2,325 nt of DNA, taken from IMG/VR virus record IMGVR_UViG_2537561709_000017; one strand, given 5' to 3'. The notes under the pieces are model-generated. The model made no database searches. It saw only the letters and a program-made list of their open reading frames with translations, and was not told the origin of the DNA. How positions within the stretch are numbered: position 1 is the stretch's first letter; the number at the start of each line of letters is the position of its first letter. Of the stretch, positions 1 through 2,325 are shown one piece after another. The DNA comes from a virus. Taxonomy: Duplodnaviria > Heunggongvirae > Uroviricota > Caudoviricetes. A program made the translations under genes and the position numbers.

Positions 1-264
1 AATTTTCGGGAAATCTCGGAAACGTCAACCAACTCTCCGGTAACTCCGGATGGTTGGATAAGCTGTAGTGAGCGAATGCCGAACGATAAACAGTATGTTT
101 GGTGTTGGGGGAAGTCTTACGGCTGGACTGAGTGCGATACCTTCGAAGGGTATTACGATTGTTCGAGAAACAAATGGTGGGCAGTTACTGACAATGGGGA
201 AGAACCGGCATCGAAAGTAACCCACTGGATGCCGCTACCGGAGCCGCCGCAGGAGGTGAAATGA
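1..264 (+). CDS. DUF551-like phage protein, 3' portion; the 5' end lies upstream of the window
   Basis: Frame 1 is open from nt 1 with no stop until TGA at 262-264, so the ATG at 76 in the ORF track is probably internal. The translation (...PDGWISCSERMPNDKQYVWCWGKS...THWMPLPEPPQEVK) matches my recollection of the DUF551 pattern (W-I-x-C/V-x-E-R-L/M-P near the start, THWMPLPEPP at the C-terminus) seen in small enterobacterial prophage proteins. Same strand and tight spacing with the downstream genes. Family assignment is from memory, not a search. Confidence 0.65.
   Translation, partial: NFREISETSTNSPVTPDGWISCSERMPNDKQYVWCWGKSYGWTECDTFEGYYDCSRNKWWAVTDNGEEPASKVTHWMPLPEPPQEVK
251..258 (+). promoter_or_regulatory. 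Shine-Dalgarno sequence (AGGAGGTG) for the small membrane-peptide ORF
   Basis: AGGAGGTG at 251-258 lies inside the end of the upstream CDS, 2 and 5 nt upstream of the tandem ATG codons at 261 and 264. The upstream stop TGA (262-264) overlaps the start as ATGATGA, the classic arrangement for translational coupling. Confidence 0.5.
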
Positions 265-347
265 TGAATTGGCCTGAAGCATTCACCGCAGTTGGAGTTG
301 CAATAGCGGTGGCATTTATTCTGTATTCGCTTTTCCGCTGGGGATAA
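261..347 (+). CDS. Small hydrophobic peptide, 28 aa (MMNWPEAFTAVGVAIAVAFILYSLFRWG), predicted single-pass membrane protein; not in the supplied ORF track
   Basis: ATG at 261 (or 264) through TAA at 345-347, hand-translated codon by codon. Near-perfect SD immediately upstream, start overlapping the upstream stop. The product is an uninterrupted hydrophobic stretch of about 20 residues flanked by Trp and a charged residue, typical of a single transmembrane helix. It sits in an otherwise unexplained 87-nt gap between two genes. Confidence 0.5.
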   Translation: MMNWPEAFTAVGVAIAVAFILYSLFRWG

Positions 348-351
348 AGGA

Positions 352-594
352 ATGTTCGCTCTGATTCAACGTGGTCAGATATACACGGACAGAGCCGGAT
401 ACCCTGTGGTGATTACTCGCAGTACTCAGCACTCAGTGTTCTTTCGACGCATGGACGGGCGCTCCGGACGGGTACGCATTGGTGAGTTCAACAACCTGTT
501 CGAACATATTGACCAACAGGAGTACCGCAAAATTCTGGCGGGCACTGAGCAGGAAATGCGCCTGAAAAAATTACGCGCAATGCAACGGAGGTGA
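352..594 (+). CDS. Hypothetical small phage protein, 80 aa, basic C-terminal tail
   Basis: ORF with ATG at 352 and TGA at 592-594, on the same strand and tightly packed with its neighbours. A G-rich stretch (GGGGA, 340-344) lies 7 nt upstream of the start. The translation is not low-complexity and has a basic tail (RLKKLRAMQRR). It may belong to a prophage DUF family, possibly DUF4222-like, but I cannot confirm this without a search. Confidence 0.6.
   Translation: MFALIQRGQIYTDRAGYPVVITRSTQHSVFFRRMDGRSGRVRIGEFNNLFEHIDQQEYRKILAGTEQEMRLKKLRAMQRR
587..591 (+). promoter_or_regulatory. Shine-Dalgarno sequence (GGAGG) for the 44-aa ORF
   Basis: GGAGG at 587-591, 6 nt upstream of ATG 598, overlapping the last codons and TGA stop (592-594) of the upstream ORF. 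Confidence 0.5.
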
Positions 595-597
595 TAC

Positions 598-732
598 ATG
601 CATACGGCTTTTGAGTTCTGGGTTCGCAAGACATTCGGCAATCGCTACGACCTGAACCGTGATGTCGACGGCTTCTACTGCCGTGAAGTTGTGAAACGAA
701 TGTTTGACGTGTGGTGCCACTGCCGTGGATGA
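598..732 (+). CDS. Small Cys/His-containing protein, 44 aa (MHTAFEFWVRKTFGNRYDLNRDVDGFYCREVVKRMFDVWCHCRG); not in the supplied ORF track
   Basis: ATG at 598 to TGA at 730-732, hand-translated. Strong SD (GGAGG) 6 nt upstream. The only minus-strand ORFs across this interval look like antisense shadows. The product has C28, C40, H41 and C42 (a C-x11-C-H-C arrangement) that could coordinate a metal ion. It is in the same frame as the upstream 80-aa ORF, separated only by TGA plus one codon. Confidence 0.45.
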   Translation: MHTAFEFWVRKTFGNRYDLNRDVDGFYCREVVKRMFDVWCHCRG

Positions 733-741
733 AAGTTTTAT

Positions 742-745
742 GAGG
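742..745 (+). promoter_or_regulatory. Shine-Dalgarno sequence (GAGG) for the excisionase-like gene
   Basis: GAGG at 742-745, 5 nt upstream of ATG 751. Confidence 0.4.
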
Positions 746-750
746 TTGGC

Positions 751-1005
751 ATGCAGACAATCATCTATCAGATAACCCCCAGCAAATGGTGTACGGAGAG
801 AGTCCTTATTGCATCAACAGGGCTAAAGCCCGGCACCATCGAGCGGGCCAGAAGAAAGTCATGGATGCAGGGAAAAGAATACCGCCATTACGCTGTAGAA
901 GGTGATCCTGGGCATTACAGTGAATGCCTGTACAACATCGAAGAAATTATGCGATGGATCGAAAACCAGAAACAACCAGGTGCCAAAAATGCAAGTTCCG
1001 GTTAA
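751..1005 (+). CDS. xis: Excisionase-like protein (recombination directionality factor), 84 aa
   Basis: Small ORF immediately upstream of, and co-oriented with, a phage tyrosine integrase, with a 33-nt intergenic gap. This is the canonical xis-int arrangement of lambdoid phages. The size and basic patches (KPGTIERARRKSWMQGKEYRHY) are consistent with a small DNA-binding protein. The call rests mainly on position and size; I did not verify sequence-level membership in an excisionase family. Confidence 0.6.
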   Translation: MQTIIYQITPSKWCTERVLIASTGLKPGTIERARRKSWMQGKEYRHYAVEGDPGHYSECLYNIEEIMRWIENQKQPGAKNASSG

Positions 1006-1028
1006 CCTGTTAATGCTCCTGGACGTCT

Positions 1029-1034
1029 GGGAGG
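1029..1034 (+). promoter_or_regulatory. Shine-Dalgarno sequence (GGGAGG) for int
   Basis: GGGAGG at 1029-1034, 4 nt upstream of ATG 1039. Confidence 0.55.
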
Positions 1035-1038
1035 TTTA

Positions 1039-2325
1039 ATGAGTAACGCATCATACCCGACAGGCGTTGAAAACCATGGCGGATCACTCCGTATATGGTT
1101 TCACTATAATGGCAAACGTGTCAGAGAAAACCTCGGTGTTCCTGACACAGCCAAAAACCGGAAGATCGCTGGTGAACTTCGCACTTCCGTTTGTTTTGCA
1201 ATCAGAATGGGGAGTTTCGACTACGCCGCGCAGTTCCCTAATTCCCCTAACCTGAAACACTTTGGTCTGGGAAAAAGAGAGATAACCGTTAAGGCACTTT
1301 CGGAAAAATGGTTGGACCTTAAGAAAATTGAGATTTGTGCGAATGCACTTAACCGTTACCAGTCAGTAATTAAAAACATGTTACCAATGTTAGGTGAAAA
1401 AAAACTGGTTTCATCCATAACAAAAGAGGATTTACTTTTCGTAAGGAGAGATTTGTTGACCGGTTACCAAAAGCTTTCTAATGGAAAGACTTCTTCCATA
1501 AAAGGGCGCTCAGTGGTCACGGTAAACTACTATATGACAACCATAGCTGGAATGTTTCAATTTGCAACAGATAATGGTTATACCTCAGGAAACCCATTTA
1601 ACGGTCTGGCTCCCTTAAAAAAGTCCAAGGTAAAACCAGATCCTCTCACCCGTGACGAATTTATTCGTTTTATTGAGGCTTGCCGTCATCAACAAACAAA
1701 AAACCTGTGGATTCTCGCTGTATACACGGGTATTCGTCACGGGGAGTTGGTATCGCTGGCATGGGAAGATATAGACCTTAAAGCAAGGACTATAACCATC
1801 CGTAGAAATTATACAAAACTTGGCGAATTCACTCCACCAAAAACCGATGCAGGCACCGGAAGGACAATTCATCTGGTTCAACCAGCTATTGATGCTCTTA
1901 AAAGCCAGGCGGAAATGACCATGCTTGGAAAGCAACATTCTGTAGAGGTGAAGCAGAGGGAATATGGGAGAACTGCTGTGCATAAATGCACTTTTGTTTT
2001 TAGTCCTCAGGTAACAAAACAGCAGCAGTTGTCCGGACCTCACTACAAGGTTGACTCCATCAGGGAGTCATGGACAAGTATCTTAAAACGCGCAGGTCTG
2101 AGACACAGAAAATCGTACCAATCCAGGCATACTTATGCATGCTGGTCACTTGCCGCAGGAGCTAATCCTAGTTTTATCGCAAGCCAGATGGGCCACACAA
2201 ACGCACAAATGGTATTCAATGTTTACGGAGCATGGATGAAAGACAACAATCACGAACAGATAGAACTCCTTAACAAAAGACTATCTGAAAGTGTCCCATG
2301 TATGCCCCATAAGAAAGCAGGGTAA
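1039..2325 (+). CDS. int: Phage tyrosine site-specific integrase, 428 aa, with N-terminal arm-type DNA-binding domain
   Basis: Complete 1287-nt ORF. The N-terminus (GSLRIWFHYNGKRVRENLGVPDTAKNRKIAGELR) resembles the arm-binding domain of lambda-family integrases. The C-terminal region carries the tyrosine recombinase catalytic signature by eye alignment: R233 in TGIRHGEL, K268 in PPKTDAG, R363-H364 in SRHTYA, H386 in MGHTNAQM, and the presumptive nucleophile Y396 in NVYGAW (codon TAC at 2224-2226). It is the last gene of the string, preceded by an excisionase-like gene. Confidence 0.95.
   Translation: MSNASYPTGVENHGGSLRIWFHYNGKRVRENLGVPDTAKNRKIAGELRTSVCFAIRMGSFDYAAQFPNSPNLKHFGLGKREITVKALSEKWLDLKKIEICANALNRYQSVIKNMLPMLGEKKLVSSITKEDLLFVRRDLLTGYQKLSNGKTSSIKGRSVVTVNYYMTTIAGMFQFATDNGYTSGNPFNGLAPLKKSKVKPDPLTRDEFIRFIEACRHQQTKNLWILAVYTGIRHGELVSLAWEDIDLKARTITIRRNYTKLGEFTPPKTDAGTGRTIHLVQPAIDALKSQAEMTMLGKQHSVEVKQREYGRTAVHKCTFVFSPQVTKQQQLSGPHYKVDSIRESWTSILKRAGLRHRKSYQSRHTYACWSLAAGANPSFIASQMGHTNAQMVFNVYGAWMKDNNHEQIELLNKRLSESVPCMPHKKAG

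Follow-up and report, generated by a model that had tools for sequence, protein, structure and literature searches.

Comparative evidence for a 27-codon gene encoding a predicted single-pass membrane peptide in the exo-xis region of lambdoid Stx prophages

Several small membrane regulators of enterobacteria, namely KdpF (29 aa), AcrZ (49 aa) and MgtS (31 aa), are shorter than 50 residues and consist essentially of one transmembrane helix, with short interface motifs and a packing face of small residues, and are missed by length-thresholded annotation. The same traits are met in the predicted product of a small open reading frame (ORF) at positions 264-347 of a 2,325-nt stretch of viral DNA (IMG/VR record IMGVR_UViG_2537561709_000017, Caudoviricetes), the whole of which is designated below as the window. 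There is no sequence relationship with these regulators, however, and the gene differs further in being phage-borne, located in the early-left (pL) operon and translationally coupled.

Type I toxins (Hok/Gef, TisB, Ldr, Ibs, ShoB) offer another likeness, that of a short hydrophobic prophage peptide, and in many phages a hok/sok module lies ~150 nt downstream of the small ORF. Unlike those of type I toxins, the peptide gene comes without antisense RNA, antisense promoter or fold-back mRNA structure; the translation of type I toxins is occluded, whereas this gene displays a strong Shine-Dalgarno (SD) sequence and a stop/start coupling. Besides, the peptide has no similarity to Hok and its gene also occurs without a toxin-antitoxin (TA) neighbour. 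Regarding superinfection exclusion, T4 Imm, HK97 gp15 and P22 SieA are likewise phage-encoded and located in the inner membrane, and early expression of the small ORF would suit exclusion during infection. These proteins are much longer than the 27-aa peptide, and they differ from it by the lack of homology, of any PADLOC match to the peptide and of a detectable promoter proper to the small ORF. The accessory genes of the exo-xis region (orf60a, orf61, orf63, orf73, ea8.5, ea22) have the same compartment, the same transcript and the same mosaic portability, and passages of PMC3824215 and PMC8614690 credit the genes of this region with an influence on lysogenisation and induction. Those discussed in passages of PMC10789677 and PMC8614690 encode cytoplasmic DNA- or RNA-polymerase-binding or zinc-finger proteins, unlike the peptide. 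In Stx phages, the V2 variant of Ea22 has as its C-terminal domain DUF551, which is encoded just upstream of the small ORF (PMC10834534).

Judging from the comparison of related sequences, positions 264-347 are a genuine protein-coding small gene whose peptide sequence is itself under selection. The chance of an open run of 27 codons in a given frame is ~0.27, i.e. (61/64)^27 by hand calculation; an open frame of such length is therefore unremarkable and the case rests on its relatives. Local tblastn retrieved 246 homologous sites, which were reduced to 145 unique sequence contexts, and in 142 of them the ORF (ATG, 27 codons, stop) is intact. The 73 distinct nucleotide versions translate into 33 peptide versions, one single peptide being encoded by 22 of them. 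A minimum spanning tree linking the 70 intact versions has 218 changes, distributed 42/35/141 over codon positions 1/2/3, that is 65% at third positions. The nonsynonymous to synonymous rate ratio (omega) amounts to 0.21 in the ORF frame, and four of the values for the five other frames lie at 1.6-2.5; the synonymous excess has an indicative binomial p of 7e-30. Pairwise dN/dS between the main alleles is below 1 for all 21 values (0.09-0.61), and among the 73 nucleotide versions, 72 have stops in the two remaining forward frames. An initial annotation of the window had proposed a gene here from the letters alone, together with a tblastn check across related prophages; these hold a conserved ORF with synonymous-biased substitutions, not the scattered frameshifts and stops or the absence of purifying selection that would have spoken against a gene.

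Wherever the length of the peptide varies in nature, the frame is kept: (Ala-Met)n expansions bring it to 31 or 35 aa, another form has 29 aa, and in yet another a stretch of 15 residues at the N-terminus is duplicated. As a side observation, these variants correspond to proteins P0075, P0078, P0080, P0083, P0079 and P0056, and the (Ala-Met)n expansions, which lie mid-helix, probably arose by slippage on a GCGATG hexamer.

Regarding the start codon, the sequence features listed in the initial annotation, i.e. ATGATGA at 261-267 overlapping the upstream stop, AGGAGGTG at 251-258 and an open frame over 261-347, are all present. Read from the first ATG, the frame encodes MMNWPEAFTAVGVAIAVAFILYSLFRWG, with its TAA at 345-347. 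The methionine aligned in every allele is nevertheless the second ATG (264-266), the counterpart of ATG-261 being GTG or TTG in close relatives and no in-frame start at all in other alleles. The GGAGG core stands 7 nt from ATG-264 vs. 4 nt from ATG-261. Given both the conservation of the second ATG and this spacing, the likely product is 27 aa long, and the 28 aa first announced hold for the reading frame rather than for the probable peptide.

The upstream stop takes a few positions relative to the conserved ATG, namely +1 (ATGA, 97 contexts), -2 (TGATG, the type of the window, 24), -7 (12) and +11 (6), and the SD 4-mer core precedes this ATG by 7 nt (83 contexts) or 9 nt (40), hence in 123 of the 145 contexts. 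Eleven annotated loci were compared, and in each of them the peptide match sets in at the stop of the gene before it. As this junction geometry is kept despite differing upstream genes and frames, it is what would be expected of a translationally coupled gene. The coupling to the DUF551 stop claimed at the outset thus stands as far as the stop/start geometry and the SD are concerned, both kept in nearly all contexts, but the partner gene varies. On the other side of the small ORF, its stop and the ATG of the DUF4222 gene (352) are 4 nt apart, a spacing found again in ~39 contexts, and the DUF4222 start is probably reached by ribosomes terminating on the small ORF. Two details of the junction can be added. 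The second TGA of the DUF551 frame (265-267) arises from the ATG-AAT start of the small ORF; and in the type represented by E. coli SLK172 (L266), the stop of DUF551 lies 10 nt inside the small ORF owing to a 1-nt difference, for an overlap of 14 nt counted from the conserved ATG, with the small ORF intact.

The surroundings of the ORF are highly mosaic, with at least four upstream and at least four downstream gene types. Upstream partners are DUF551, Ea22-like, EaA, 'ACLAME 31'-like or 933W L0139-like genes; downstream, the ORF is followed by DUF4222, by mok/hok/sok, by an opposite-strand TA pair or by a convergent KilA-N gene. Between phages, the ORF is 70-87% identical with 100-nt flanks at 49-62% (54% for random sequences); comparing the window with 933W, ArgO145 and TH18, the values are 73-80% for the ORF and 49-57% for the 100-nt flanks. 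The reverse is seen between the window and PhiR12_1, which are 97% identical upstream and 89% downstream vs. 70% in the ORF (50% at the protein level), and they diverge directly behind an invariant CGCCGCAGGAGGTGAA box. The alleles of the transmembrane core (N-, T/S-, D-, WW- and RWR-types) are exchanged between flanks that are otherwise nearly identical, and free reassortment is seen when peptide alleles are cross-tabulated with the gene types on either side. It is conceivable, if rather improbable, that the 27-aa gene acts as an exchangeable cassette, whose alleles could confer specificity on an interaction at the membrane among lambdoid phages, be they co-resident or incoming, e.g. allele-specific exclusion or cross-talk among the prophages of enterohaemorrhagic E. 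coli (EHEC) strains. As to the box itself, these 16 nt include the SD and are invariant in the four sequences aligned (window 241-260, L012, L013 and L101); the box sits exactly where similarity between phages switches on or off and looks like a recombination joint at a mosaic boundary.

Translated homologues give the family consensus MTWPEAFTTVGxAMAVALxVYSICRWG, in which W3, G11, R25 and W26 are invariant and P4, A6, A15, Y21 and S22 nearly so. An acidic MxWP[E/D]A motif at the N-terminus and a basic aromatic RWG at the C-terminus frame a stripe of small residues (G11, A13, A15, A17) of the kind used in helix-helix packing. The stretch F7-F24 (18 residues) has a KD17 of 2.28 and a summed Hessa value of -0.97 kcal/mol, with scale values of the published table; over all 30 intact variants, KD17 ranges from 1.68 to 2.82. 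In every variant, the first 7 positions contain a single acidic residue and none that is basic, and the last 4 contain one or two basic residues and none that is acidic, from which, by the positive-inside rule, an N-out/C-in topology is predicted. For a natural 31-aa variant, AlphaFold2 (AF2) run on a 13-row alignment gave one helix over residues 3-30 with a mean pLDDT of 92.9. The peptide is thus predicted to be one transmembrane helix, in the class of proteins of at most 50 aa, and the single helix put forward in the initial annotation finds agreement both in the hydrophobicity of all variants and in the AF2 model.

In terms of distribution, the peptide was compared by tblastn with 50,697 phage records and matched 99 of them, 97 over at least 80% of its length; 18 records reach an identity of at least 99%, 19 fall in the 60-80% band and 62 stay below 60%, and the matching records include 933W, VT2-Sakai, Min27, ArgO145, BP-4795 and POCJ13. 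Three scans of IMG/VR each confirmed 369-429 relatives among the first 600 pattern matches. By blastn, 1300 of the 5426 complete E. coli genomes, roughly one in four, contain the ORF interior, often in several copies, at 2363 sites in total and with up to 7 sites per genome. A strict degenerate DNA pattern searched in 185,579 species genomes (one per species) had true matches in E. coli, Shigella flexneri and Escherichia sp., the remaining matches being due to chance since they do not translate to the peptide. Peptide alignments and a 48-aa upstream-extended database entry also served as queries; in a database of 5.8 billion proteins, 33 clusters were retrieved, for which every named source is E. 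coli, Shigella or Salmonella, several being unnamed. The peptide is best filed as a new and narrowly distributed family (Escherichia, Shigella, Salmonella) within a known class, that of the small single-pass membrane proteins of phages and prophages.

A few records would extend this range. Contigs of less than 500 bp with the ORF bear the labels of Xanthomonas pisi (L106, 431 bp) and Acinetobacter idrijaensis (L118, 369 bp), and the ORF also occurs with lambdoid E. coli prophage sequence in records of Actinobacillus phage vB_Apl-pPE4 (L008) and of the Vequintavirinae phage vB_EcoM_TH18 (L006). These four likely result from contamination or chimeric assembly and do not represent true distribution. 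Of note, a stretch reading LGLFSICRW, which resembles the C-terminus LGLYSICRW of the WW allele, lies opposite the mok/hok leader ~235 nt downstream of the small ORF, at ~760-840 of the minus strand in L007 and at the same place in ~35 other hok-type loci; with stops just upstream and a low score (~24 bits), it is probably due to chance.

Positions 30-1100 of the window are 99.8-100% identical by megablast to the Stx1 prophage of E. coli O157:H7, the matches at this level including VT1-Sakai/Sp15, YYZ-2008, phi330 and hundreds of O157 chromosomes. In Sakai, the genes follow one another on one strand in the order N ... gam, bet, exo ... ECs_3010 (DUF551), gap, ECs_3011 (DUF4222), ECs_5743, xis and int, beyond which comes the attachment site in mlrA/yehV, and Pfam profiles recognise DUF551, DUF4222 and a DUF1233 excisionase among the proteins of the window. 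The small ORF with both its ATGs corresponds to NC_002695.2:2941818-2941904, where the conserved ATG is at 2941821. The small ORF is therefore placed at the far end of the pL operon, in the exo-xis region of a lambdoid Stx prophage (Table 1). As an aside, the ATG of ECs_5743 (598) comes 4 nt past the DUF4222 stop, which makes it one more tightly packed small gene, and its 44-aa product has no Pfam or PADLOC match.

Table 1. Coordinates of the features surrounding the small gene, numbered from the first nucleotide of the window.
Feature	Position	Strand	Remarks
DUF551-domain gene, 3' part	1-264	+	ECs_3010 in Sakai; Pfam DUF551 E=4e-12; start upstream of the window, stop TGA at 262-264
Shine-Dalgarno sequence AGGAGGTG	251-258	+	core GGAGG at 252-256, within the end of the DUF551 gene
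First ATG	261-263	+	alternative start without conservation; 28 aa if used
Tandem stops TGA TGA of the DUF551 frame	262-267	+	overlap both ATGs of the small ORF
Conserved small gene, 27 codons and TAA	264-347	+	product MNWPEAFTAVGVAIAVAFILYSLFRWG
Predicted transmembrane helix, codons 7-24 (FTAVGVAIAVAFILYSLF)	282-335	+	hydrophobicity scales, AF2
DUF4222 gene	352-594	+	ECs_3011; Pfam DUF4222 E=9e-16
44-aa ORF ECs_5743 (formerly ECs5482)	598-732	+	between DUF4222 and xis; RefSeq hypothetical protein

Searches beyond the family itself were mostly negative. Three alleles of the peptide had no significant match in Pfam, NCBIfam, PHROGs or PADLOC, a PDB profile search gave no match either, and the PHROG hits obtained (E=0.02-0.09) were all to families of unknown function. 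At the RNA level, no Rfam match was obtained for the interval at E<=1, folding indicated no excess structure (z = -0.11), and a crude consensus scan of window positions 1-1100 detected no promoter or terminator motif on either strand. In the literature, a text search of the peptide sequence motifs identified no relevant indexed paper containing them, the supplement of the Pro-SMP finder paper held no match to the peptide, and text searches of the two papers on the exo-xis region, PMC10789677 and PMC8614690, returned no passage on a small membrane-peptide ORF.

With respect to expression, ECs5482, 250 nt downstream on the same strand, has both RNA-seq and Ribo-seq signal in uninduced Sakai, with RPKM values in LB of 118.6 for the transcriptome and 38.0 for the translatome and a coverage of 0.83 (PMC5597208 S2 Table). 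Exo-xis genes are described, in a passage of PMC8614690, as expressed at the earliest lytic stages, and the position of the small ORF in the operon implies its expression with the delayed-early genes. The sequences themselves show the ORF, its conservation and selection in frame, the junction geometry, the hydrophobicity, the charge asymmetry and the distribution; translation of the small ORF is inferred, as are membrane insertion, topology and partner binding of its product.

The reading favoured here, towards which the evidence leans only slightly, is that of a coupled 27-residue peptide of the inner membrane acting as a partner-binding regulator. ATG-264 would be used either by ribosomes arriving from the upstream gene or by ribosomes that the GGAGG, 7 nt before it, recruits, and the peptide would insert in the inner membrane with its N-end in the periplasm and its C-end in the cytoplasm. 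There, the small-residue face and the two interface motifs could allow packing onto a transmembrane helix in an inner-membrane protein, whether of the host or of a phage, and so alter the activity of this partner, in the manner of AcrZ, KdpF and MgtS, possibly during early lytic development or the lysis-lysogeny decision. Interface motifs at both ends together with a small-residue face suggest specific helix packing over non-specific damage to the membrane.

Several points weigh against this reading and its premises. Regarding the coding evidence, relatedness and partial recombination among the sequences joined by the tree make the binomial p value indicative and not exact; homologues were located through peptide motifs, a sampling that favours intact copies; and omega is also low (0.26) in the wobble-matched antisense frame. 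Three of the 145 contexts are disrupted, by a 1-nt deletion at codon 2 (L011), by TGG>TAG at codon 3 (L014) and by loss of the stop (L090), and read-through variants with 11-26 extra C-terminal residues exist (P0066 on 62 contigs, P0070 and P0071), which implies that the gene is dispensable in some prophages. Regarding the membrane, the summed insertion energy is marginal in some alleles (+1.5 kcal/mol for the 933W type). The partner-binding mechanism has no supporting family match: the peptide reaches 14.7 bits (E=0.024) with KdpF TIGR02115, below the cutoff of 26.85, and 13-14 bits with the DUF883_C glycine zipper (PF19029), below the cutoff of 27. Lastly, the RNA-seq/Ribo-seq supplements for Sakai do not list this ORF; that study took only ORFs of at least 30 aa, and a 27-codon ORF could therefore not have been reported.

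Among the other explanations, the one to be taken most seriously, even if it appears unlikely, sees the peptide as a membrane-damaging or exclusion factor, whose self-oligomers would depolarise the membrane (toxin or abortive infection) or which would block the entry of superinfecting phage DNA at the inner membrane. Such roles, along with host modulation, had been suggested as candidates in the initial annotation. Type I toxins and small Sie proteins are indeed similar to the 27-aa peptide in size and hydrophobicity, and the G/A-x-A-x-A pattern is equally able to drive self-association; moreover, the ORF is often located beside hok/sok or other TA modules, it is present in up to 7 copies per genome, and its core alleles differ between near-identical flanks as a specificity determinant might. 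Coupling inside an operon behind a strong SD does not fit a type I toxin, for which neither antisense promoter, antisense RNA family nor special RNA structure was found, and exclusion in a lysogen needs expression from a repressed prophage, for which the crude consensus scan detected no promoter-like site. The absence of a PADLOC match also counts against this explanation, as do the strong conservation of the two interface motifs and dN/dS values below 1 everywhere, which run counter to diversifying selection. The same selection bears on quite another proposal, and a decidedly improbable one, in which translating the ORF would matter and not the peptide: by carrying ribosomes over the 87-nt gap, it would allow DUF4222, xis and int to be translated by reinitiation and would shield the transcript from Rho-dependent polarity. 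In the window, the ORF is in fact joined on both sides, by the TGATG overlap upstream and by the 4 nt to the DUF4222 ATG, a gap kept in ~39 contexts, and the AGGA of DUF4222 directly abuts its own ATG, which is a poor SD spacing. A mere bridge, however, agrees poorly with purifying selection on the amino-acid sequence and with a fixed length and fixed motifs at both termini, and the ORF is equally conserved where no coupled gene follows, i.e. before ~150 nt of non-coding DNA preceding mok/hok or before a convergent gene.

Two further possibilities are scarcely tenable. The interval could be a non-coding spacer, whether a recombination patch, an RNA element or an antisense gene, open by chance in one frame; it does lie exactly at a mosaic junction with the invariant CGCCGCAGGAGGTGAA box at its 5' edge, and one antisense frame is open over the 84 nt in 68 of the 73 versions, with the omega of 0.26 given above. 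This low value is expected as an artefact of wobble positions coinciding with those of the sense frame, and in the window the antisense frame has no start before GTG-286, from which a 33-aa ORF runs into the DUF551 gene. The preponderance of third-position changes, the encoding of one peptide by 22 DNA versions and the stops in both other forward frames all speak against a spacer, as do the lack of an Rfam match, the fold z-score and the lack of promoter or terminator motifs in the scan. No more credible is the use of the frame as a C-terminal membrane anchor of the upstream protein through programmed frameshifting, a process known to be stimulated by an SD in prfB, which the SD-like GGAGG just before the upstream stop recalls. 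In support of it, a natural in-frame fusion of 114 aa (WP_050554297.1) is present on 466 contigs; however, the loss of 80 nt between CGATGAGTTA direct repeats accounts for this fusion. A slippery heptamer is neither present nor conserved, the upstream frame differs by context (+1, -2, -7, +11), and the ATG, which a frameshift product does not need, is intact in 142 of the 145 contexts. In its own right, WP_050554297.1 (L267 434-778, E. coli CFIAFB20190167) joins the first ~73 residues of an 'ACLAME 31'-type gene to the 27-aa peptide and constitutes a natural tail-anchored version of it.

Regarding annotation, the 87-nt interval is devoid of any feature in RefSeq/PGAP, in the original VT1-Sakai record and in a 2025 phage record, and among 60 sampled rows from complete E. 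coli genomes, PGAP has none under the ORF match in all but 6. The gene, described at the outset as unlisted, is not entirely so: a few GenBank records list it as 'hypothetical protein' or 'bacteriophage protein'. Entries of 26-39 aa are wrongly named 'DUF551 domain-containing protein, partial', a name transferred from the neighbouring gene and borne by partial contig-end translations of the peptide frame; in a Pfam scan, the peptide itself has no DUF551 profile match and only the upstream protein does. This name transfer and a clustering artefact could mislead annotation. Fusions of the peptide with DUF551 proteins of 121 aa and 185 aa were considered and rejected, as these proteins do not contain the peptide and were brought together with it by clustering at 90% identity.

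The function of the peptide being inferred only, what can be offered for now is a well-supported candidate for catalogues of small proteins and for annotation pipelines, and one that lends itself readily to experiment, being tightly coupled, constant in length and mosaic in its behaviour. The exo-xis region shifts the lysis-lysogeny balance and hence toxin release, and the published lists of its genes omit the small ORF. Since this ORF is unannotated in nearly all sampled genomes, past studies in which the region was deleted or overexpressed may unknowingly have taken away or supplied a membrane peptide as well. Of a kind that is not surprising in itself, the peptide gene is a useful annotation lead in a medically relevant prophage region.

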